DNA of 64,000 bases from an uncultured Dorea sp. (GCA_910580235.1 CAJTVU010000008.1:3310-67309); one strand, 5' to 3'. Numbered from the stretch's first letter, positions 23,791-37,694 are shown. Numbers and translations: made by a program. The notes: generated from the sequence alone by a model not told the origin.

Positions 23791-24064
23791 ATTGCCAGAA
23801 CCTTTGAAAATGCTGTATTTTCGGTGTTTCTACACATTTTCCTGTCCTTTCTGTTTCTTTATTTTCCTCATATCTTATCATAAATTATCATAATTTTGTG
23901 TGAATTTGAGGTAAAAAGTGAGGTAAATTCAAAATTTGTACCTCAAAGATAATTTTAATATGGTAAATTATACGCCTTTGTGATTTTTGCCTTTCCTGTT
24001 GGCTCTGGAGAGGATTTATGCTAAACCAACAACTAATATTGACAATATCATTTTGTCATGATGA

Positions 24065-25318
24065 TTACTTTATCACATACTTAGTACCCCTTCCTCTGCC
24101 TTCAATTTTCACAACACCTTTTTTACCCATCTCTTTCAGTAATTGTGTTGTCTTTGATTTACCAAACGGGGCGTAAGGGGCAATTTCGCTAATTGATTTC
24201 AGCATTGTCTTGCTTAAAATTTTATATATTTTTCTTTCGTCTTCCGTTAAATTCAGGTTTTTCTCAAAAACCGGAAGTACAATCTTAATTGTATTTTCCG
24301 ACACTTCAAAATCCGGCTGCTTCAATCCTTCTTCATAGAGCTGCTTTATCCGTGTAATTCCTGTACCGAATATTTCGACAAACCCCAGCCTGTAAAATAC
24401 ATTTGCAAGATTTCTATTTCTTAAGACTGAAAGTTTCCCCGATAAATACTCATCTTCCGTTATTCCAGAAGGCAGTCCTCCCGGAGAAATAATTTCTATT
24501 CTGTCGTCAAACATCGAAACTTTTATCTGTGATTCCACATCCCACACCCTATGAATCAGCGCGTTTGCGATTGCTTCTCTAAACGCGGCCTCCGGTATTT
24601 TTTCTACCTTTTTCCGCTCGGTGCCTTGTACTTCCTCGTATTGATAATAATCTTTAAATACTTCTGATACTTTTTCGTAGACTGTCAAAATGGATATATT
24701 ATCAAATGTTGCTCTCTTATGAATCACACTGATGCTCTCACCGAACCTCACCATATCAATTCCCGGAAAATGATTTTTATCCGCCAAAATGCCAGACGCA
24801 TTATTATATCCAGCGGTGCTGTTATATAAGTTCAGCGTTTTCAATGTGTCCTGATTAAAAGTTTCAATCTGAATACATTCTTTTAATTTTTGACATAGCG
24901 TATCAAATGTTAACTCTTGCTCTTCACACGGCAATTCTTCAAATTTGATATTTTTTCCTTCTAAAATCAATCTTGACAGCTCTAGTGTGTCAGCCTCTAT
25001 TGTTGCAGTATCATTTCGCTTGTATGCTTTCGATTTATATAAATATGGCTTTTGAAGCCCGCTTTTTACAGTCAGTTTTATCGTTCTGTCATTATTCTGC
25101 AATTCCAGTGTATAATCAGGCTGCGGAGTAATGCTGTCATTAATTTTATTTTCGATATCCAGACACGCTTGTTTTACATCCGACAGTCCTTTGATATTAC
25201 CATTGTCATCAATGCCAAAAAATATTTCTCCACCATCGTAATTCGAAAAGGCACTTACTGTTTTTAAAAATGTATTTGTAATCGTTTCTTTGAACTCTGT
25301 TGTTCTTGCTTCACGCAT
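24065..25318 (-). CDS. AlbA_2 (Schlafen-type) DNA-binding / HATPase_c_4-like / wHTH protein
   Basis: N-terminus TTEFKE..GGEIFFGIDDNG, central REAIANALIHRVW..ISPGGLP..RNRNLANVF, and a C-terminal wHTH. ATG 25318 was chosen over track start 25372. Confidence 0.7.
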   Translation of the reverse strand: MREARTTEFKETITNTFLKTVSAFSNYDGGEIFFGIDDNGNIKGLSDVKQACLDIENKINDSITPQPDYTLELQNNDRTIKLTVKSGLQKPYLYKSKAYKRNDTATIEADTLELSRLILEGKNIKFEELPCEEQELTFDTLCQKLKECIQIETFNQDTLKTLNLYNSTAGYNNASGILADKNHFPGIDMVRFGESISVIHKRATFDNISILTVYEKVSEVFKDYYQYEEVQGTERKKVEKIPEAAFREAIANALIHRVWDVESQIKVSMFDDRIEIISPGGLPSGITEDEYLSGKLSVLRNRNLANVFYRLGFVEIFGTGITRIKQLYEEGLKQPDFEVSENTIKIVLPVFEKNLNLTEDERKIYKILSKTMLKSISEIAPYAPFGKSKTTQLLKEMGKKGVVKIEGRGRGTKYVIK

Positions 25319-25375
25319 ACACTGCTCTCCCTTTCCAATTTTACTGTTTATATTATATGCAGAAATACGCAAAAA

Positions 25376-25412
25376 ATCAATCGTATTTTTTTGCGATCGA
25401 TTTTCTGAACGT
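25376..25412 (-). terminator. Intrinsic terminator of the 29634-25501 operon
   Basis: On the minus strand, hairpin AAATCGATCG..CGATTGATTT followed by TTTTTG. Confidence 0.55.
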
Positions 25413-25500
25413 TTTGGGTCATTAAGTTTTAAATTTCTGTCACATCAAGGCTCTTGCAGAAAATGGTGTAGTAGTGGTGTAGTAAATGTCTTTTCTCGCC

Positions 25501-26580
25501 TCAAAAGCTCTCTGGAACAAGCGCTAGTTTGTTAATCGACTCGTGAGCCCTGACAAGGGAGTCATAGACGGCCAGAACATCTTCGGAATCCCAGGTACGA
25601 AGGGACTTTTCATCAATAACGCCAGTGCTTTCACGTATGATCTTTGCGAGCTGTTCTTCGTCGGCGACAGCAACAACGGCCTGAACCGCAGCGTTGCTCT
25701 GTGCCTTTTTAAGGTTCAGGATAAGGCTATCTATAGAGCCCTTCGATTGTACCTCAAACACGTAGATCGCCTTACCCATATTACCGATCTTGGCTTCCCA
25801 AACGGCATCTACAACTGCGCCGGTGGTAATTTTAACTTCAGAACGACTGTTAAAGCCGAGAAGCTCGCCGATAGCAACCAATTTTTCCTTAATTTCATCG
25901 TGGAGGGATTTTGAATCATTTATGGTAACGGGGCTCTTAGATTCGGGAGCTGCAGGCGGTTCAGGCGATTTCTTTTCAGTGAGAGGTAAGATCTCGTCCC
26001 ACATAAAGTAATCTACTGCTAAAAGGTCATAATCTTCGGCACCGGCCTTTTTGAGCGCTGCGGCAATCTCTTTTGCAATTGTGCAAACCTCTGTATATTT
26101 CTTTCCTGTGTATTGGTAGTCATACTTTGGCATGCCGGGGATATCGAGATAACTGTAGCACAGGATCGTTGTCTTGTTAAAGATTACATACTCCTGTGGG
26201 TTGGCGTATGTAAGCAGCTCGCTCATTGTTGCAGGCCCCATACCTTTGATAGATTTCAAGAATACATCCCAACGCTTTTCAACAGGGCTTGTGCCGTAAA
26301 GCAATTCGGCCAATTGCTTTTTTAGTGCAGCAAAACCATTGTCGGCTATCAATTTATCGGCAACATACTTTTTATTGCCCCAAATAAGCATAGACCAAAG
26401 TTTGCTTATATACTCTAAGAATTCATCTTCGGTCATATCAATAAGCTTGTCCTTCGTAAATGACTGATAGTATTCCTTGCGCTCTTTGCGCTCAGCCCAA
26501 TTTTCTTCATAATAAGCGGCGTTTGTTTTTCTTTTCTTTGAAAATGCATTAATGGAATTCAATAATTTTGTATTGTTCAT
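25501..26580 (-). CDS. Hypothetical protein with HhH-like N-terminal half and PD-(D/E)XK-like C-terminal domain
   Basis: IKGMGPATMSELL is a helix-hairpin-helix-like GxG loop. The C-terminus VDAVW..VFEVQSKG fits D..E-x-K nuclease spacing. RBS AGGAGG is present, and the gene starts 30 nt after the upstream stop. Confidence 0.45.
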   Translation of the reverse strand: MNNTKLLNSINAFSKKRKTNAAYYEENWAERKERKEYYQSFTKDKLIDMTEDEFLEYISKLWSMLIWGNKKYVADKLIADNGFAALKKQLAELLYGTSPVEKRWDVFLKSIKGMGPATMSELLTYANPQEYVIFNKTTILCYSYLDIPGMPKYDYQYTGKKYTEVCTIAKEIAAALKKAGAEDYDLLAVDYFMWDEILPLTEKKSPEPPAAPESKSPVTINDSKSLHDEIKEKLVAIGELLGFNSRSEVKITTGAVVDAVWEAKIGNMGKAIYVFEVQSKGSIDSLILNLKKAQSNAAVQAVVAVADEEQLAKIIRESTGVIDEKSLRTWDSEDVLAVYDSLVRAHESINKLALVPESF

Positions 26581-26610
26581 GCAGAAACCTCCTGAAAAAA
26601 CTTTAATATT

Positions 26611-27573
26611 TTATCCTTTCCAATACCCAAGCTCTTCTAACAATCCCACGGCTTCCGGCTTATATTCTGCCCGGGCAGAGACATAGATCACTGTATCGGT
26701 GATACGGACTTTTGCCACATATAGCGTTTCGTTCTCTATGGAATACAATTCGTGAACCATTCCGCTGTATTCTTTAGTTTCTCCGTCCGATACAGGAAGA
26801 GTCATGCCGTTAAACAAGACACGGGCGCTGTCCGCTGTGTCCATAACAACAAAATCCATTCGGATATTGCCGTCATTAAATGAGACGGCTTCCTCAAGCA
26901 TTGAACCGACTTTCCAGTTCTGGCTCAATTCTTTCGTCGTATCGGAAGTTGTGTGCCCCGCATCCTCGACAACTTCTACAAAGTGATCTATTCCGATAGG
27001 GCGAATGCCTGGAAACAATTTCGTTGCTAAAGACATGCCGCCCAGGACAACCGAAACAGCTGCGATTCTAAAAACAATAGCTAATATAGGCTTCGGATTT
27101 GTCTTCTTCATTTCTTCAGGGCTCACATATTCTTCCGGTGGGAGGATCTCTTCCTCTTCCGGCTCCCCTCTTCTGCGTATCTTGTGGATCAAAGCCCAGG
27201 TTCCCGAAAGAAAGAATCCGATTGTGATAAATATTGCCCCAAAGCTAAGAAACACCATCAGATTATAAAGGCTGGGCGACAATATATCTGTGCAATTCTC
27301 TGGAGACTTTGGATCATACTTTATTTTGACCTGATCTCCAAGTCCCATTGGAGGGCTTCTGTTGTAAAGCTTGCCGGAATATTCATTTCCGTCTACTTCA
27401 TACTGATAGGTGATTTTATATCTGACGCTTCTATTGTGCCGGGAACGTGAGTATTCGCTGGATATATCAATACCCTCAGCGTACAAGGGGACATACGCCC
27501 TGAACCATGATATTTGAGCTGTTTCTATCTTTCTTTCGTGTCCTCGTTGTTTTCCAGTTCTTTGGCAATACAT
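26611..27573 (-). CDS. DUF3592-like membrane protein with extra C-terminal domain (start uncertain)
   Basis: Beta-rich block YKITYQYEVDGNEYSGKLY..GDQVKIKYDP followed by TM LMVFLSFGAIFITIGFFLSGTWALI. A second TM is ILAIVFRIAAVSVVLGGMSLA. No candidate start (27672, 27630, 27573, 27486) has an RBS, and the 5' end overlaps the upstream gene. Confidence 0.5.
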   Translation of the reverse strand: MYCQRTGKQRGHERKIETAQISWFRAYVPLYAEGIDISSEYSRSRHNRSVRYKITYQYEVDGNEYSGKLYNRSPPMGLGDQVKIKYDPKSPENCTDILSPSLYNLMVFLSFGAIFITIGFFLSGTWALIHKIRRRGEPEEEEILPPEEYVSPEEMKKTNPKPILAIVFRIAAVSVVLGGMSLATKLFPGIRPIGIDHFVEVVEDAGHTTSDTTKELSQNWKVGSMLEEAVSFNDGNIRMDFVVMDTADSARVLFNGMTLPVSDGETKEYSGMVHELYSIENETLYVAKVRITDTVIYVSARAEYKPEAVGLLEELGYWKG

Positions 27574-28247
27574 ATGCACAGGTTCGTATAACGCTCTATG
27601 GAATGCATTCCTTCTTCGATATGCTCCCATGATTTTTTGTAATCGCCGTTCACTGAAAAATCTGACTCGCACAGGAATTTGATAAACCCTTCCAGATTAT
27701 TTCTATACTTTCTGGCAAATGCATAAGAATTTTCCTCTTTGGCATCATCTGTGCTATTACGATTGTTATGTAGTACATGATCTAAGTTGCAGGACATGTA
27801 ATACACTCTATATGGTATGCTCCAAACTTGTCCATTGCTTTTCAGCCGATATAGGTTGTCCGTTTTTCGTTTGTTGCGCTCGATAATGCCTTGCGGATCG
27901 GACGTATGGATCCCATCAGATTCGTAAGAGATCCTGTCACATGTTAGATCATTGATAACATTTTCATCTGGAATGTATACACCGTCTGTATCGACAATGT
28001 GAATGATCTGCTTAAAATCTTTTGCTGTATAATGCTGTGATTTTGTAAATATACGCACTTCATTTCCAATCTTTGAAACGATATTTTGCGGGTTCACGCC
28101 ATTTCTGGCTGTAATATCGCCGTGCATAATATGGACATGCACCGAATCTTTATCATATATCTGATCCAACATGACGCCTAATGCCGTCTCATCGGAAGAC
28201 CCTTCTACAATGACAAGCACGATCTTCTTACGAGCCAAATGCCTCAC
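27525..28247 (-). CDS. TOPRIM-like protein (DUF4435/RloB/OLD-nuclease type)
   Basis: N-terminal KIVLVIVEGSSDE (conserved Glu strand) and IIHIVDTDG (DxD). The start overlaps the upstream ATPase by 20 nt. Confidence 0.6.
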   Translation of the reverse strand: MRHLARKKIVLVIVEGSSDETALGVMLDQIYDKDSVHVHIMHGDITARNGVNPQNIVSKIGNEVRIFTKSQHYTAKDFKQIIHIVDTDGVYIPDENVINDLTCDRISYESDGIHTSDPQGIIERNKRKTDNLYRLKSNGQVWSIPYRVYYMSCNLDHVLHNNRNSTDDAKEENSYAFARKYRNNLEGFIKFLCESDFSVNGDYKKSWEHIEEGMHSIERYTNLCICIAKELENNEDTKER

Positions 28248-29634
28248 CCGCCTCTCTGAACGCTAAAGCGATCTCAAAGTTATTCGTAGGATTATATACC
28301 TGTTCATTCTGCTCACCTAAAACAATATCGCGATAGTAGAAATCTCTTAAGTTATTATTCCCTTTTACATTCGTCAGCCGGATGTACCTGTTTGCCGGAT
28401 TCGTTGTTGTGAACGCAATGAATCCTTTGTCAATCGTTTCAAGTGGCCTAAGATTGTGTGATGTAAATATCAGTTGCCCTTTCCCTTTTTCGGAAATAAT
28501 ATTCAGGACTTCTCCAAGCAGATATTCAAAGATCCCCGAATCCAGCTCGTCAATTGCTACAGTGATAGATGGAGTGTTATATACTATAATGAGCAGCTGC
28601 AAGACAGATACGATTTTCTTGATACCTTCAGACTCATATCGAAACGGGATTGTTTTTCTGTTCTTTAGCGACACAAGCTGGATCGATCTTCCGGGATGCC
28701 CTTCTTTAGATACTACAGGCCCTAAATCTACAATACCGATTGTTAATCCAGGAACGAGCTGCTGCAGAACGATGTTCATGTTATTAATGATTTTTTCAAT
28801 AAGCGGCATAGCTTCTTCTGGGATTGGCGCGGGGATATTCAGCGGGAGCATTAGGTTTCCGACCGCTTCTTTATTGTTGTTTGTACATTTAAAGGATAAA
28901 GGCAATGCATTCATACTGATTAAGCCGGCATTTTCCGTATTAATAATAAAGAGCTCGCGATTACCGAATGCATATAATCCTTTTATGATATCCAGATATT
29001 TTCGGACCGTACAGTTTTCCTGGAAACGTTGGATCATTTCTCTGGAGAAAATAAAGGATCTTGATTGTTCCTGGGCCAGACGTTTTGTTACAAGTAATTC
29101 TGTAACATCATCTTTTGCTTTTCCCAGCAGTGCGTTATATTTTGACTTTGGGATAAATATGTCTGATGTCCTTGTATCTATAAGCGAGTTTTTCCGGATT
29201 TTTTCTTCTTTTGATGTATACCCAAAACTTAGCGCTTCATCAAAAATCTGCGCCTTGTACTTTAATTCAGAATCGGAAAGCCTATATTCATTGGAGTCTG
29301 GATCATCAATCACTTTCTTCAAAGAGAACTGGTACCAGATATCGTAGACAGCCTCATTTAATTGCATTTTGAACTGGAATTTAAGCAGGGAGCAGCTTTC
29401 TGCAATGCTAATATAGTCTGCATATTTTTCTGGAACAGCTTTGCCACATAAAACAAACTTGAGCAGTTGTAGCGCGTCGATTAGAGCAGTTTTCCCCGAG
29501 CCATTCTGCCCGTATAGGCCAACGATGCTTGCGCGATAATTCTTTCTTCGATTTTCAAGATCAAGCGTTCCCTTTTGCACATTTTTAAAATTCTCAATGG
29601 AAATGTTCTCTATCCTAATAAAACGCTTGCTCAT
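28228..29634 (-). CDS. ABC-type ATPase of the AAA_15/AAA_21 (OLD/AriA-like) class
   Basis: Walker A GQNGSGKTALIDAL, a long helical insertion, Walker B ITVAIDELDSGIFEYLL, and an H-loop LIFTSHN. ATG 29634 sits 5 nt after GGAGGT. Confidence 0.75.
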   Translation of the reverse strand: MSKRFIRIENISIENFKNVQKGTLDLENRRKNYRASIVGLYGQNGSGKTALIDALQLLKFVLCGKAVPEKYADYISIAESCSLLKFQFKMQLNEAVYDIWYQFSLKKVIDDPDSNEYRLSDSELKYKAQIFDEALSFGYTSKEEKIRKNSLIDTRTSDIFIPKSKYNALLGKAKDDVTELLVTKRLAQEQSRSFIFSREMIQRFQENCTVRKYLDIIKGLYAFGNRELFIINTENAGLISMNALPLSFKCTNNNKEAVGNLMLPLNIPAPIPEEAMPLIEKIINNMNIVLQQLVPGLTIGIVDLGPVVSKEGHPGRSIQLVSLKNRKTIPFRYESEGIKKIVSVLQLLIIVYNTPSITVAIDELDSGIFEYLLGEVLNIISEKGKGQLIFTSHNLRPLETIDKGFIAFTTTNPANRYIRLTNVKGNNNLRDFYYRDIVLGEQNEQVYNPTNNFEIALAFREAGEAFGS

Positions 29635-29943
29635 AATAACCTCCATAATTTCAATAAATAATCCAATATGTATGTTCTTGTTAATATTATACCATTATAT
29701 TGCTTAATATTTCAATATAAAAATATGATTTTGGAACTTTTTGTTCCGATTAACTGATTTGGTATAAATTATTTGTAATAGTTTGTATTTTGCTCATTTT
29801 TTCAAAAAGTATACCTACCCTCAGTGTACAAGGGGTCCCTCATTTTCTGAAAGGTTAATAAGTTAACAGGAGAATTGCTTGTTTTTCGTGGCAATATCTG
29901 ATATTATGTTCTCAGATTACTTTACGGAAAGGAAGTGCTTAAC

Positions 29944-30744
29944 ATGGGATTTTTAACAGGAAAGACAGCGATCATCACAGGCGGAGGAAGGGCTACGCTA
30001 AGTGACGGAAGCTGTGGCTCTATTGGATATGGCATTGCGACTGCATATGCGAAGGAAGGGGCGAATCTGGTCCTTACGGGACGGAATGTAAAGAAGCTAG
30101 AAGACGCCAAGGAAGAGCTGGAGAGGCTTTATGGGATCAAAGTGCTTGCAGTCCAGGCCGACGTAAGCGCAGGAGCGGATAATAAAGCAGTAGTAGAGAA
30201 TGTAGTGAAACAGACGATGGACACATTCGGAAGGATCGACGTGCTGATCAACAACGCCCAGGCGTCCGCATCAGGAGTGACGCTTGCAGACCATACAACG
30301 GAGCAGTTTGATCTGGCGGTCTATTCTGGGCTGTATGCGACATATTATTATATGCAGGCGTGCTATCCGCACCTGGTGGAGACGAAGGGGAGCGTTATCA
30401 ACTTCGCGTCAGGCGCAGGGCTGTTCGGCAACTTCGGACAATGTTCCTACGCAGCAGCCAAAGAGGGGATCCGCGGTCTTACGAGGGTTGCTGCTACAGA
30501 GTGGGGCAAAGACGGTATTAATGTTAATATCGTGTGCCCGCTTGCATGGACGGCACAGCTTGAGAATTTTGAGAAGGCATATCCAGATGCGTTTAAAGCA
30601 AATGTGAAGATGCCGCCGGCCGGACATTATGGCGATGTAGAGAAGGAGATCGGACGCGCCTGTGTACAGCTTGCTTCTCCTGATTTCAAATTTATGAGCG
30701 GCGAGACGGTTACGCTGGAGGGCGGTATGGGCCTTAGACCTTAG
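29944..30744 (+). CDS. SDR family oxidoreductase
   Basis: TGGG..GIG-type cofactor motif with an insertion, NNAQ, and YAAAK catalytic motif. Confidence 0.8.
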   Translation: MGFLTGKTAIITGGGRATLSDGSCGSIGYGIATAYAKEGANLVLTGRNVKKLEDAKEELERLYGIKVLAVQADVSAGADNKAVVENVVKQTMDTFGRIDVLINNAQASASGVTLADHTTEQFDLAVYSGLYATYYYMQACYPHLVETKGSVINFASGAGLFGNFGQCSYAAAKEGIRGLTRVAATEWGKDGINVNIVCPLAWTAQLENFEKAYPDAFKANVKMPPAGHYGDVEKEIGRACVQLASPDFKFMSGETVTLEGGMGLRP

Positions 30745-33967: not shown

Positions 33968-34453
33968 ATGGGCAGCAGGTTTACAGAAGGGTTTAAGGAA
34001 GAGAGTTGGTATAAGGAATTGTGTGAAGAGGGTCAGTATATCTGTGACCTTATCCATAAATATCATAAATATTTTAGTAGACAAGATAAGAAATACCGTC
34101 ATATTGTCAGGGTGTTTCATATACTTGTCTTATTATTTTCCATGATAAATACAATCGTGTTGGGAATGAAGACGATTATATCAGCGGATATCCAGATTGT
34201 GGCAGGGCTTATCTTGAGCGCGCTGGTAACGTTTGTTTCAGCTATCATGTCATATTTTAATTTTGAAGAATACTGGATGCGAAATATTACGACGCATATT
34301 GATCTCAATATTCTCAGAGACCGGTTCATTTTTGATGCAAAGTCTGGGAGATTTGACGATAGAAAGAAAATTCAGCAATATAAAGATGCCTTGGAAGAAT
34401 TGCAGAAGAAAAATATAAAGTATTGGAAAAAATCGCTGAAGAAAATCGGATAA
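33968..34453 (+). CDS. SLATT/DUF4231-like two-TM protein
   Basis: 161 aa. Cytosolic head, TM1 VRVFHILVLLFSMINTIVLGM, TM2 IVAGLILSALVTFVSAIMSYF, then a helical tail NFEEYWMRNITTHIDLNILRDRF. RBS GAAGGAGAAGGA precedes the start. Confidence 0.55.
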   Translation: MGSRFTEGFKEESWYKELCEEGQYICDLIHKYHKYFSRQDKKYRHIVRVFHILVLLFSMINTIVLGMKTIISADIQIVAGLILSALVTFVSAIMSYFNFEEYWMRNITTHIDLNILRDRFIFDAKSGRFDDRKKIQQYKDALEELQKKNIKYWKKSLKKIG

Positions 34454-34465
34454 AGGAGTATAGTC

Positions 34466-35431
34466 ATGGAAAAGGGAATTATTGAAAGTACAAGGGAGAA
34501 TTCTCAGAACATACTGAGCAAGATACGAGAACAATTAAGAGAAAGGTTTCCTTTAGAAAATGAGAAGTATAAGAATATTTGTGTTTATGCCTGCGGCTCT
34601 CTGGGAAGATTAGAAATGTCAGAGAATTCAGATTTAGATTTGTTTTTTGTCTCTTTGCATAATTGTGGAGAGGATCCTATGTGCCAGAACCTGAATAAAT
34701 ACAAGTTTTTTTCAAAACTATATGATATAAATTGTGCGATGGAATTTCCTGAACCCAGTAAATGTGGAGAGTACTGGGAATTCATTAATAAAGACGATTT
34801 TCTTGACATAGGAAGCAGGAAGGAAGACTTTAATAATAGTTTTACGGCTCGGCTTCTGTTCCTTTTGGAAAGTAAGCCAATTTATAATGAAGAAGCATTC
34901 GATTGGCTTTTGAAGGAGACGGTCTCAAAATATTTTACCGACTATGCAGACCACCGGGATGAATTTTACCCGTTATTTTTGATAAATGACATTCTGCGCT
35001 ATTGGTATACATTGACATTGAATTATGAATATAGAAGAGATGATGCGGATGATGTCCACAAGAAGAACTGGAAACGCCTGAAACTGAAATACGCCCGGTT
35101 ACTTACATGTTTTTCTATGATTGCATGTCTGTATCGTAGGAATATTACGAGCGAGTACGTGGTGGAATGCATAAAAATGACGCCTCTTGAACGTTTGGAT
35201 AAAGTGGCCTCGAAAAATACTGAGCTTAGAGGTATTGTGGAGAGCATTAAGAAAGAATATGAGTGGTTTCTTAATTTAAGGCAGACCAGAGACAATGGAT
35301 TTGATGAGAAGGAGAAGCGGGAAGAGGCCTTCCGGCATGCGGATAAATTTCATGAGCTTGTCTTGCATCAGTTGCTCAATCAAGTGTCGCAGGCAAATCC
35401 GCAGTTAAGGAAGAGGATGGATTTATTCTAA
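34466..35431 (+). CDS. Pol-beta superfamily nucleotidyltransferase with helical C-terminal domain
   Basis: CGSLGRLEMSENSDLDLFFV is a G-S..D-x-D catalytic signature (nt 34595..34639). The subfamily is unresolved: SMODS/CD-NTase-like versus GlnD/DUF294-like. Confidence 0.7.
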   Translation: MEKGIIESTRENSQNILSKIREQLRERFPLENEKYKNICVYACGSLGRLEMSENSDLDLFFVSLHNCGEDPMCQNLNKYKFFSKLYDINCAMEFPEPSKCGEYWEFINKDDFLDIGSRKEDFNNSFTARLLFLLESKPIYNEEAFDWLLKETVSKYFTDYADHRDEFYPLFLINDILRYWYTLTLNYEYRRDDADDVHKKNWKRLKLKYARLLTCFSMIACLYRRNITSEYVVECIKMTPLERLDKVASKNTELRGIVESIKKEYEWFLNLRQTRDNGFDEKEKREEAFRHADKFHELVLHQLLNQVSQANPQLRKRMDLF

Positions 35432-35450
35432 TCTGAAATGGGGACTGACT

Positions 35451-37694
35451 ATGAAGTATTTTGCGCTATTTTTAAATGAAAATAGTTTTATTGAAAAATG
35501 TATCTCGCTGATGAGGTTTATAAGCAATCCGTCTACAAAATCCAGGCCGCATATTACAGTGCGCCTTTTTAAGGAGTCAGATCCTAGAATGGAAGAATCT
35601 AGGAAGATGGAGGAATCCAGAAGGAGAGAGTTTACGTATCTTAATATTGTCTGTCCGGGAACTTTTAACTTTGAGAAAAAAAAACCGCCTTATGTAGTCT
35701 TTCTGCAGTGTGAGTCGGAAGAACTTGAAGATATAGAATATAAGCCTGATTTTCCTTATAGCAGACTTCATATTACGATTTACGAGGGGGACGATTACTC
35801 ATATGCAGAAAAGTTGTATCAGTTGCTATGCTCTTTTTCATGGCATTTCAAACTGCTTTTTGAAAGCCCGAGAAAACTGTTGGAGCAAAAGGTAGGGAGT
35901 AAAAGTTATGAGAGGCCGGATTTTCAGGCTATATTTGAGGAGATCATAGGAGAAGGCTATCAGGAATTCTTAAAGGATTATGACAAAGATATAGAAGTTC
36001 GGCTTAAGTTGATGAGAAGGCTGCTTCAAGAACTTAAGATTCATCTGGAAGAGGTTAAACCAGAAAAGATTCAGTCGGTTTATGAGAGTAGTTCCAGACT
36101 AAAAAGCGGTGGTCAAAAAAAAACTTATAGACAGATGAAAGATGGAGTCACCTTGCCCTTTTTGGATGAAGAACCTGTTACATTTCATAAACCTGTAACA
36201 GATGCCATTTATATTACACCTCCGGAATATGCAAGAGACATGGTGAAATGTGGTCTGGAGGCCATGGAAGAGAACCACGGGGAAATTGATTTCGGTGATT
36301 CTGCTATAGGGACAGGAACTCTATTTCTGGCACTTCGGCTTTGGATTGATGAAATAAACAGAACACATGGGAGTGGACATAACTATAGAATACGCTCTGC
36401 TATAGGAATTGATATTGACAGACAAATGGCGGATGAAGCTTCTATCCGTTGCCACAAAAGGGGCTTGAAAGTGATTTACGGTGATGCTCTTCTGCCTCAT
36501 ATGGATTTGGGGGAAAAACGCAATTTTATGGTAGTGAACCCACCGTTTAACCGTCATGGAGATATACCAAAAGAATATAGGGAGCTCTTGCATGACAGTG
36601 CAAAAGAGCAGACTGGAATAAGTATTGCAGGAAATGCAGGGCTATATGTGTACCATCTATTGATTATGGATAAATGGTTATGCGACGGTGGAGTGGCGGT
36701 ATGGCTTCTCCCAGCTGTCTTCATGCAGGTAAGGTATGGGGAGGCGGTCAGGCGTTATCTGCTGGATTGTGTGCAACTGATAAAAATCCATATTTACAAC
36801 GAAGAGGTAGAGCAGTTTGACAGTACAAATGTATCTACTGCTATCGTGGTTTTCAGGAAGGGAAAGACTGAGAGGGAAGACAAAGTGCAGGTTTCTTACG
36901 GGGCTTCTGTGGAACATCCGATAGATAGTAAGCGCATACTAAGAGAAGAACTTGTAAAAAACATGGACAACTGGAGAGTAGTATTAAAAGAAGAGGCGTC
37001 TTTTGGAGAGCATGGCAGTAAGATTACATTCGATGACTTGTTCGAAATAAAACGTGGCGTGGCTACAGGTGCGAATGATTTCTTTGTCATGACAAGAGAA
37101 AAAGCCAGAGAGTTCCATATTCCTGATATTGCTTTAAAGCCGCTGATCCCCAAGGCACGTTATTTGAAGTCTCTAGTGATAGAAGAAAGAGAAGATGGTT
37201 ATCCCGATGTAGAACCACAGTTGGTAATGATTGACTGTGCTTTAGACGAAGAGCGTATTCAAGAGATGTATCCGGGTTTCCATCGTTATCTGCAGTTGGC
37301 AAAAGTAAAAGAAGAGAATGGCGTCGCCGTTGTCGACAGATTTCTGGTGAGAAATAGGCATCCTTGGTACAGGCAGGAAAGAAGGGAACCGCCAGTTTTT
37401 CTTCTGACTTATATGGGTAGGAATAAGAAGAATCTGCCTCCTCTCTATTTTATATGGAACAAATCCCAGGCGGTTGCGTTGAACACGTATTTACTGCTAT
37501 ATCCCAGAAAAGGGCTGAAAGCTAGGCTGCGTGAGAATCCGGCTCTGCACGAGATAATATTGGATGCGCTCAATAAGTCTGCACAGGAAATGATGTCTTT
37601 CCGGGCAAGAGTCTATTCGGGCGGACTTAAGAAAGTTGAGCCAAATGAACTGCGTAGAATGCCGATTATAGGGCTAAATGAATTTTTGCAGTAA
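35451..37694 (+). CDS. Fusion protein: N-terminal 2H phosphoesterase-like domain plus gamma-class N6-adenine methyltransferase (Eco57I/TaqI-like)
   Basis: Two HxTx motifs with the expected context: RPHITV at aa 33-37 and RLHITI at aa 105-110, after an N-terminal YFALFL strand. SAM motif FGDSAIGTGTLF (nt about 36291..36329). Catalytic NPPF at nt 36537..36548. C-terminal FEIKRGVATGANDFF target-recognition-type block. Confidence 0.7.
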   Translation: MKYFALFLNENSFIEKCISLMRFISNPSTKSRPHITVRLFKESDPRMEESRKMEESRRREFTYLNIVCPGTFNFEKKKPPYVVFLQCESEELEDIEYKPDFPYSRLHITIYEGDDYSYAEKLYQLLCSFSWHFKLLFESPRKLLEQKVGSKSYERPDFQAIFEEIIGEGYQEFLKDYDKDIEVRLKLMRRLLQELKIHLEEVKPEKIQSVYESSSRLKSGGQKKTYRQMKDGVTLPFLDEEPVTFHKPVTDAIYITPPEYARDMVKCGLEAMEENHGEIDFGDSAIGTGTLFLALRLWIDEINRTHGSGHNYRIRSAIGIDIDRQMADEASIRCHKRGLKVIYGDALLPHMDLGEKRNFMVVNPPFNRHGDIPKEYRELLHDSAKEQTGISIAGNAGLYVYHLLIMDKWLCDGGVAVWLLPAVFMQVRYGEAVRRYLLDCVQLIKIHIYNEEVEQFDSTNVSTAIVVFRKGKTEREDKVQVSYGASVEHPIDSKRILREELVKNMDNWRVVLKEEASFGEHGSKITFDDLFEIKRGVATGANDFFVMTREKAREFHIPDIALKPLIPKARYLKSLVIEEREDGYPDVEPQLVMIDCALDEERIQEMYPGFHRYLQLAKVKEENGVAVVDRFLVRNRHPWYRQERREPPVFLLTYMGRNKKNLPPLYFIWNKSQAVALNTYLLLYPRKGLKARLRENPALHEIILDALNKSAQEMMSFRARVYSGGLKKVEPNELRRMPIIGLNEFLQ

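Follow-up and report, generated by a model that had tools for sequence, protein, structure and literature searches.

We analysed a gene pair in a 64,000-nucleotide (nt) stretch of DNA from an uncultured Dorea sp. (GCA_910580235.1 CAJTVU010000008.1:3310-67309). This whole stretch is called the window below, and all positions are counted from its first letter. The region contains two minus-strand open reading frames (ORFs), one at 28228..29646 (472 amino acids, aa) and one at 27525..28247 (240 aa, GTG start). The first encodes an ABC-type ATPase. The second encodes a small protein, here called the partner, with a putative TOPRIM-like domain. A preliminary description, made from the sequence alone, had listed both ORFs within 27525-29634, with a 20-nt overlap. 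We confirmed these on the minus strand and found an 11-nt overlap as the alternative if the partner starts at a TTG codon. The features of the pair and of its surroundings are collected in Table 1.

Table 1. Features of the gene pair and of the surrounding DNA in the window.
Feature	Position	Strand	Details
ABC-type (SMC/Rad50/OLD-like, AAA_15/AAA_21) ATPase, 468 aa	28228..29634	-	Assigned by Pfam, PADLOC and motifs
Walker A GQNGSGKT, residues 42-49	29488..29511	-	G42, Q43, N44, G45, G47, K48 and T49 invariant in 38 homologues
ABC signature-like ESEGIKK, residues 334-340	28615..28635	-	E334, S335, G337, I338, K339 and K340 invariant in 38 homologues
Walker B VAIDELD, residues 359-365, catalytic Glu E363	28540..28560	-	V359, E363 and D365 invariant, D362 in at least 90% (38 homologues)
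H-loop TSHN, residues 391-394	28453..28464	-	4/4 residues invariant in 38 homologues
Partner gene, 240 aa (GTG 28247) or 237 aa (TTG 28238)	27525..28247	-	Putative diverged TOPRIM-like region (residues ~8-160) and C-terminal helical region (residues ~165-239)
Motif EGSSD (E15-D19), TOPRIM-type EGxxD	28191..28205	-	End of strand 1; E15 and G16 82/82; position 19 D68/E14
Invariant D44 (in GDIT)	28116..28118	-	Directly after strand 2; 82/82
DxD motif D86-T87-D88 (VDTDG)	27984..27992	-	End of strand 3; D86 and D88 82/82; G89 81/82
Motif SCNLDH (S152-H157)	27777..27794	-	Directly after strand 4; S152 80/82, N154 76/82, H157 79/82
Span from K128 (27864..27866) to K170 (27738..27740), includes SCNLDH	27738..27866	-	Both lysines 82/82
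Shine-Dalgarno GGAGG	29640..29644	-	5 nt 5' of ATPase ATG 29634; read from sequence
Promoter-like site TTGAAA-18 nt with TG extension-TATAAT	29686..29715	-	5' of ATPase gene; consensus match
Schlafen AlbA_2 + HATPase_c_4 (+ TrmB-like winged helix-turn-helix) protein	24065..25372	-	
359-aa ORF	25501..26580	-	No Pfam, PADLOC, NCBIfam or PDB match
DUF3592 membrane-protein ORF	26611..27672 as listed	-	Overlaps partner gene by 148 nt
SLATT/DUF4231 protein with two transmembrane segments	33968..34453	+	Second low-GC islet
321-aa protein, weak NTP_transf_2/GlnE matches	34466..35431	+	PDB sequence search: nothing
747-aa N6_Mtase/Eco57I-type methylase	35451..37694	+	Second low-GC islet

Layout of the pair and properties of the two proteins

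The longer ATPase ORF begins at ATG 29646, which lies within the Shine-Dalgarno GGAGG. Because of this GGAGG, we take the ATPase to be the 468-aa protein that starts with MSKRF at ATG 29634. Its stop codon (28228..28230) falls inside the partner ORF. Public gene calls for the partner use both starts given in Table 1, and the overlap is 20 nt with GTG 28247 or 11 nt with TTG 28238. Since R6 and K8 are conserved, the partner should start at one of these two codons and at none later. The promoter-like site is placed in the AT-rich gap toward a divergently transcribed SDR gene. With 11/12 consensus positions it was the top site within 24000..30200, as a consensus match only.

The ATPase scored above the Pfam gathering threshold for AAA_21 (1.9e-13, 51.6 vs 27 bits), SMC_N (6.2e-11, 42.6 vs 40 bits), AAA_15 (2.7e-10, 40.8 vs 32.1 bits) and AAA_23 (6.9e-08). 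AAA_15 and AAA_21 are the two ATPase models that the preliminary description had named as a check. The Walker A GQNGSGKT, Walker B IDELDSGI and H-loop FTSHN that it had pointed out can all be read in the 468-aa protein. The Walker B stretch AIDELDSGI corresponds to residues 360-368 and FTSHN to residues 390-394, and the signature-like region reads YESEGIKK (residues 333-340). About 280 residues separate Walker A from the signature motif. Because Walker A, the signature, Walker B with its catalytic Glu and the H-loop are invariant, the ATPase should be able to hydrolyse ATP. The sequence thus points to a hydrolysis-competent SMC/Rad50/OLD-like ABC enzyme.

When the ATPase was compared with PADLOC, the best match was AbiLi (PDLC02335, 6.4e-29, 99 bits), which is partial and covers model positions 49-277 of 326. 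AriA (7.8e-16 and 8.7e-11), mad3 (7.2e-12), ATPase-Toprim_I-B, PDC-M07A, PDC-M38A (4.5e-9) and HEC-01A (1e-7) were also matched. Most of these models are the ATPase halves of ATPase-plus-effector systems. As a single sequence the ATPase had no match among PDB sequences, and its profile matched only Rad50 (6e-5) and RecF (1e-3), both weakly.

For the partner, we built an alignment of 82 diverse family members with 32% mean column identity. Residues E15, G16, D44, D86, D88, K128, K170 and N222 are invariant in it. Six positions are always acidic, namely E15, D19, D44, D86, D88 and D/E156, the last being D in 50 members and E in 32. R124 and N125, which lie just 5' of the K128-K170 span on helix 3, are each kept in 80/82. 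By analogy, K128, K170 and R124 may contact the substrate or serve catalysis. VLVIVEGSSDE (residues 10-20), IVDTDG (residues 84-89), the conserved Glu and the DxD, all of which had been noted before in the 240-aa protein, are present, with E15, D86 and D88 invariant across homologues. The canonical TOPRIM motifs are EGxxD and DxDG (Aravind 1998, as cited in PMC12065111), and the EGxSD and DTDG of the partner correspond to them. The same motif criteria have been described for DUF4276 and RloB, and DUF4276 has been placed in the Toprim superfamily (PMC12065111).

The partner family is large and unannotated. Homologues fall into 1109 clusters at 90% identity, all lacking Pfam domains and all named "hypothetical protein". 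At 50% identity there are 1677 representatives with E<=1e-3, 522 of these with E<=1e-30. RefSeq annotates the cassette only as "AAA family ATPase + hypothetical protein". The partner is recognised by none of PADLOC-DB 2.0.0, Pfam (2025), NCBIfam 20.0 and PHROGs v4. The sole PADLOC match of the window protein is mad4 (E=0.0019), over its first 40 residues. Searches against PDB sequences, with the single sequence and with two profiles, gave chance-level matches only (GMP synthase, chorismate mutase).

Each of the 82 members was then scanned singly against Pfam, and matches at E<=1 were counted for the 25 most-matched families. Weak matches to Toprim were found in 27/82 members (best E 0.002), to DUF4276 in 17/82 (best E 2e-4, the lowest of any single Pfam match), to OLD-like_TOPRIM (PF20469) in 13/82 (best E 6.5e-3) and to DUF3226 in 5/82 (best E 0.014). 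In NCBIfam and PHROGs scans of the same members, at most 3 members fell on any one family. We take this as the chance level, because these collections are without TOPRIM-type models. The family consensus matched Pfam Toprim with E=0.0041, residues 9-87 aligning with model positions 1-66 from the strand-1 Glu to the DxD. PADLOC matches among the members were to mad4 (12 members), HEC-01B models (8, 5, 4, 3 and so on), PDC-M38B (6) and AbiLii (2). These are the B components of the systems whose A components are matched by the ATPase.

The AlphaFold2 model of the partner, made from the diverse alignment, has a predicted local distance difference test score (pLDDT) of 95.6 and a predicted template modelling score (pTM) of 0.90. 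It contains core strands at residues 8-14, 36-42, 78-86 and 144-151, helices at 17-30, 56-70 and 118-137, a three-strand insert at 97-115 and a C-terminal helical domain at 155-239. Strands and helices follow one another as in TOPRIM, b1-a1-b2-a2-b3-(hairpin insert)-a3-b4. The invariant acids are predicted at or just past the C-terminal ends of core strands 1-4, or at the start of the next helix. The features of a TOPRIM core, that is a Rossmann-like order, a Glu after strand 1 and a DxD after strand 3, are all present in the predicted structure. Foldseek against PDB gave as best match 3rad_D, the TOPRIM of topoisomerase IV ParE (E 5.6e-3, prob 0.72, template modelling (TM) score 0.23-0.25). 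Eight of the top 40 PDB matches were TOPRIM-bearing type IIA topoisomerase chains, all with E>1e-3. Against BFVD, the best match was a myovirus RloB-like protein (E 1.4e-3, prob 0.98, TM 0.33-0.37).

Because motifs, topology and recurrent weak matches agree, with no single significant match, we read the N-terminal half of the partner as TOPRIM-derived. Sequence and model are consistent with, but below the threshold for, a TOPRIM-derived domain beyond current models that is joined to a helical domain of its own. The TOPRIM assignment is thus weaker than the preliminary description had suggested; motifs, topology and recurrent weak matches agree with it, and all profile and Foldseek support for it is sub-threshold. 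The same description had held that a second protein lacking TOPRIM profile or structural similarity would speak against the assignment. On that point the outcome is mixed, with hidden Markov model (HMM) matches below threshold and Foldseek matches that are not significant.

Conservation of the pair, carriers and mobility

Using the SCNLDH motif as the search pattern in one genome per species, we found that at least 560 of 185,579 species genomes encode a relative. Most carriers are Lachnospiraceae and other Clostridia. It was also found in Selenomonadaceae, Erysipelotrichaceae, Ruminobacter and Aeromonadales, a distribution that hints at exchange within the communities of gut and rumen. The closest relatives are in Lachnospiraceae and Roseburia metagenome-assembled genomes (MAGs).

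Synteny was counted at 76 loci with sufficient upstream sequence. At 74 of them, an ORF of 463-519 aa with a Walker A motif ends within the partner start, and where the partner start is unambiguous the overlap is 1, 4, 8, 11 or 20 nt. The possibility raised earlier that the two genes are not conserved as neighbours therefore did not hold. At one locus (L032) the ATPase is cut by the contig end. At L077 (3516-4999), and at L007 (4589-6020), which came from a separate look-up, the ATPase is split over two frames and the partner is intact. The split frames reflect a module in early decay or else a misassembly. The distance matrices of ATPase and partner correlate with r=0.85 (Mantel p=0.001, 79 pairs). 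A fused ATPase-partner protein was also considered and rejected; the sole long match (P0223, 413 aa) has an unrelated N-terminus.

Pairs arranged in this overlapping manner are also present, at 31-37% identity, on plasmids from Bacillus thuringiensis, B. mycoides, Lysinibacillus and Ruminococcus albus. Of these plasmid pairs, at least three adjoin tyrosine recombinases or show an 8-nt overlap. One Clostridioides phage-plasmid carries the pair. Integrases, insertion sequence (IS) elements and toxin-antitoxin genes, including RelB/ParE and IS66, are close by at several loci. From locus to locus the immediate neighbours are unrelated, their 137 ORFs matching 171 Pfam families. The commonest neighbour families are HTH_3 (9), AAA_14 (4) and Fic (3), and many neighbours are plain metabolic genes. 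No third conserved component was found among the neighbours of the examined loci. These observations support the pair as a self-contained cassette.

Two loci differ in what follows the ATPase. The Lachnospira eligens ATCC 27750 chromid (NC_012780.1, locus L013, 5001-6401) has an ATPase of 65.7% identity without the partner, and an IS256 transposase adjoins it. This copy of the cassette looks decayed or orphaned. An Enterococcus faecalis plasmid (NZ_CP090559.1, locus L014, 4007-5965) has a distant ATPase relative whose conserved ends show ~33% identity. The next gene encodes a 195-aa hypothetical protein without Pfam match; a tyrosine recombinase and a Fic gene adjoin. The 195-aa protein may represent a further type of effector combined with this ATPase chassis.

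Proposed role and relation to known systems

ABC-ATPase-powered defence, as in OLD, Gabija, PARIS, AbiL, Septu, Menshen and MADS, is a major theme of bacterial immunity. We propose, with a probability of roughly two in three, that these two genes make up a conflict module of the split ABC ATPase plus TOPRIM effector kind, self-contained and horizontally mobile. The preliminary description had suggested such a split architecture, and our analysis supports it and adds translational coupling. By analogy with PARIS, AbiL and Mad3-4, an oligomer of the ATPase would bind the effector and keep it silent. The ATPase would be the sensor of an infection cue, and once triggered it would free or license the effector. 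The freed effector might then use divalent metal ions to cut DNA or tRNA/RNA, the six conserved acids serving as putative two-metal ligands. Cleavage would halt growth or phage replication.

This scheme follows PARIS, in which an AriA hexamer holds AriB until a phage trigger frees it; AriB then dimerises and cuts specific tRNAs (PMC11464382, PMC12409363). As ATPase-TOPRIM systems, AbiL and Mad3-4 have been classed together with PARIS (PMC11464382, PMC13064643), and AAA ATPases are able to neutralise TOPRIM_OLD toxins (PMC10440598). From these analogies we infer an anti-phage or abortive-infection role, and they likewise suggest nuclease activity, a physical complex, a trigger and a target for the pair.

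Several results weigh against the conflict-module proposal. The family consensus reached 17.7 bits vs a Toprim cut-off of 23.1, and no TOPRIM-type model passed. Among Toprim, Toprim_4, OLD-like_TOPRIM, DUF4276, RloB and DUF4435, no significant profile match was reached, the members giving sub-threshold matches only. The window partner itself had no match in Pfam even at E<=10, nor in NCBIfam or PHROGs. When the family was aligned by hhalign with 34 P2 Old class 1 TOPRIM sequences, the probability was 9.6% over 23 columns around VEG, and we set this comparison aside as unusable for proof of homology. Foldseek searches with two models against PDB and one against BFVD gave no match at E<=1e-3, and TM-scores were 0.2-0.37. 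Structures of AriB, GajA, OLD and RNase M5 were missing from the top 50 matches, and EIIA-Man, FtsZ and flavodoxin-like folds scored like the topoisomerase TOPRIM chains. The partner was found on only 12 of 2.9 million viral contigs. With these 12 contigs and the one phage-plasmid, we rejected phage carriage as the usual vehicle. A conserved neighbour or defence-island signature was rejected as well, the immediate neighbours being heterogeneous and mostly ordinary genes. The intact partner beside a frameshifted ATPase, seen at two loci, fits poorly with a strictly toxic effector, which is a mild point unless the frameshifts are assembly errors.

Among the other explanations, the one that survives best places the pair within AbiL/RloAB, as a very diverged member with an AbiLi-type ATPase and an RloB-type TOPRIM, instead of on a branch of its own. 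AbiL (AbiLi/AbiLii, Lactococcus) and RloA/RloB are likewise two-gene operons, with a small TOPRIM-related protein encoded after an SMC/Rad50-like ABC ATPase. In PADLOC the ATPase matches AbiLi best (6.4e-29), an RloB-like phage protein is the top, borderline BFVD match of the partner (E 1.4e-3, prob 0.98), and 2/82 partner members weakly match AbiLii. The RloB motif, which we take to be S-N-P-C-F-E, is loosely like the S-x-N-x-[DE]-H of the partner and serves as a lead only, not as a test. However, the AbiLi match spans only model positions 49-277 of 326, and the RloB-like fold match has TM-scores of only 0.33-0.37. RloB (PF13707) was outside the 25 most-matched Pfam families of the 82 members. 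The AbiLii matches (E 0.013-0.021) came from fewer members than those of mad4, HEC-01B or PDC-M38B. Features that set the partner apart from AbiL/RloAB are a C-terminal helical domain of its own and the motif set of SCNL[DE]H, K128 and K170. Since the second component was not recognised as RloB or AbiLii, we rejected membership, and a hidden relationship of this kind seems unlikely to us. The mechanism of AbiL is likewise unknown (PMC13064643).

Slightly less probable is a toxin-antitoxin or addiction module, in which the ATPase would neutralise a TOPRIM-like toxin and the pair would mainly stabilise plasmids or islands instead of acting in phage defence. The bicistronic overlap, the presence on large plasmids and the position beside RelB/ParE, IS66 and integrases fit this idea. 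In NetFlax, AAA ATPases that neutralise TOPRIM_OLD toxins were validated as toxin-antitoxin pairs (PMC10440598), and the PARIS model gives the ATPase the role of antitoxin (PMC13064643). However, Lachnospira eligens retains the ATPase without the partner, the partner is intact beside a frameshifted ATPase in L007 and L077, and most copies are chromosomal and next to housekeeping genes. Toxin-antitoxin behaviour and defence are not mutually exclusive.

It is improbable, in our judgement, that the partner is no nuclease at all, but a Rossmann-like metal- or phosphate-binding domain such as a phosphatase, nucleotide hydrolase or regulator, which resembles TOPRIM by convergence or too distantly for an activity to be predicted. 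Receiver, HAD and DHH domains are likewise marked by acidic residues where strands 1 and 3 end. Every TOPRIM line of evidence is sub-threshold, and EIIA-Man, FtsZ and flavodoxin-like folds rank near the topoisomerase chains in Foldseek. However, the recurrent weak matches fall on Toprim, DUF4276, OLD-like_TOPRIM and DUF3226 and not on receiver or HAD families, and the pair of motifs EGxxD and DxDG is TOPRIM-specific. In all characterised cases, moreover, the partners of such ATPases are nucleases (PMC11464382, PMC12065111).

A housekeeping pair for DNA repair or chromosome maintenance, with a RecF/RecN/Rad50-like ATPase and an accessory nuclease, is very improbable. Rad50 and RecF were the only PDB sequence matches of the ATPase profile, and RefSeq gives the L. 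eligens homologue a Gene Ontology term for double-strand-break repair. However, against the NCBIfam equivalogs the ATPase reached 26.1 bits for RecF (cut-off 172) and 15.6 bits for Rad50 (cut-off 1000). The family occurs sporadically, in 560 of the 185,579 species genomes covered by the motif scan. Its position is variable, with plasmid carriage, a low-GC islet in the window and same-species contigs that differ around the pair. Because the ATPase is far under the RecF cut-off, sporadic and in variable contexts, we do not regard it as a housekeeping RecF/SMC protein, a grouping that the preliminary description had held would count against a defence module.

True PARIS (AriA/AriB) can practically be dismissed; the two-gene ATPase plus TOPRIM-like architecture is shared and AriA models match the ATPase (7.8e-16, 8.7e-11), but AriA stands behind AbiLi (6.4e-29) and no DUF4435 (PF14491)/AriB signal was found in the partner or among the most-matched families of its 82 homologues. 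AriB is ~35 kDa (PMC11464382), compared with 240 aa or ~27 kDa for the partner, and AriB structures are missing from the Foldseek lists. The pair is mainly found in Clostridia chromosomes and plasmids and rarely on viral contigs, whereas PARIS is often on phages and satellites. PARIS, also called class 4 OLD, is likewise a split ABC ATPase with a TOPRIM-type effector, and the trees of AriA and AriB match (PMC11464382), as the two genes of the present pair co-diverge.

The conflict module proposed here can also be compared with other ATPase-effector systems. The two genes give congruent weak A and B matches to Mad3-Mad4 (MADS), HEC-01 and PDC-M38. In contrast to Mad4, HEC-01B and PDC-M38B themselves, all partner matches are far under trusted thresholds. 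The eight-gene MADS system contains a methylase; Mad6-8 are mandatory in it and Mad3/Mad4 accessory (bioRxiv 10.1101/2023.03.30.534895). A PADLOC scan of five flanking genes found no mad genes, and the ATPase reached 19.6 bits for NCBIfam MADS3 (cut-off 420). MADS membership was therefore rejected, the scanned flanks having no Mad6-8/methylase operon and the score being far under the MADS3 cut-off. OLD nucleases (P2 Old, Gabija GajA, retron Eco8 OLD) share the AAA_15/21-type ABC ATPase and the TOPRIM logic with acidic metal ligands (PMC10568477). OLD proteins are one polypeptide, whereas the pair consists of two ORFs in all 74 intact loci. Unlike Gabija and retron Eco8, it has no UvrD-like or reverse-transcriptase partner. 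OLD classes 1-3 were rejected because of the separate ORFs, the sub-threshold PF20469 matches (13/82) and the hhalign result.

The preliminary description had left the choice between PARIS, an RloAB-type pair and a new branch, and had named DUF4435 and RloB (PF13707) as profiles that should decide. The partner matched neither of them, so that PARIS and RloAB fall away and a separate branch is favoured. To judge from the sequences, the pair probably forms a separate, unannotated branch with weak affinities toward Mad4/DUF4276, HEC-01B and PDC-M38B. More tentatively, at odds well short of even, the partner may found an unrecognised effector lineage instead of being a distant version of PARIS, AbiL or Mad3-4. 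It would then define a fifth, Clostridia-centred split ATPase-TOPRIM branch with its own trigger, and with a substrate of its own or even a non-nuclease chemistry at a six-acid metal centre.

What is new here is the large unannotated effector family; the ATPase-effector architecture is already familiar. Detection tools see only effectors for which models exist, and the cassette is a large family that is currently invisible to them. Many of the carriers are dominant human and animal gut Lachnospiraceae. Should the pair prove to act in defence or abortive infection, gut Firmicutes would have a different defence inventory, a compact new ATPase-effector pair would become available for mechanistic comparison with PARIS, and the partner would offer a TOPRIM-like enzyme scaffold that is new and very small. 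Should it instead be a distant relative of AbiL/Mad3-4, the practical benefit would be one more HMM that PADLOC, DefenseFinder and Pfam could use.

Surroundings of the pair in the window

The pair lies in a low-GC stretch at ~23.5-30 kb, with a GC of 0.36-0.45 vs 0.47-0.50 in the flanks. The same stretch holds the Schlafen AlbA_2/HATPase_c_4 gene, the unannotated 359-aa ORF and the DUF3592 gene. Around the pair, same-species contigs differ from each other. The public call of the DUF3592 gene is 295 aa (26611..~27498) and begins ~38 nt past the partner stop. As a third gene of the system it was rejected, since it occurs only in same-species contigs and in no other loci. Its co-transcription with the pair is possible in this species only, because no terminator-like site lies between them.

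A 91%-identical copy of the Schlafen-like gene adjoins the pair in a Lachnospiraceae MAG (L044, 894-2198), and distant relatives are found within 5 kb in L048 and L069. The Schlafen-like gene may be a recurrent co-passenger of the pair. The 359-aa ORF is missing from same-species contigs that are otherwise near-identical (L001-L003), in which the DUF3592 gene directly abuts the Schlafen-like gene, and it looks like an insertion specific to this strain. Inspection by eye alone shows a D...E-x-K-like string (VFEVQSKG) at the C-terminus of its product.

Because low-GC stretches here contain Schlafen, SLATT and methylase genes and a strain-variable ORF, the neighbourhood looks like accessory, partly defence-related DNA, as a trait of this genome and not of the whole family. 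The second low-GC islet, 33968..37694 on the plus strand, has a GC of 0.35-0.43. It looks like a minimal nucleotidyltransferase plus SLATT effector pair beside a type IIG-like restriction-modification gene.

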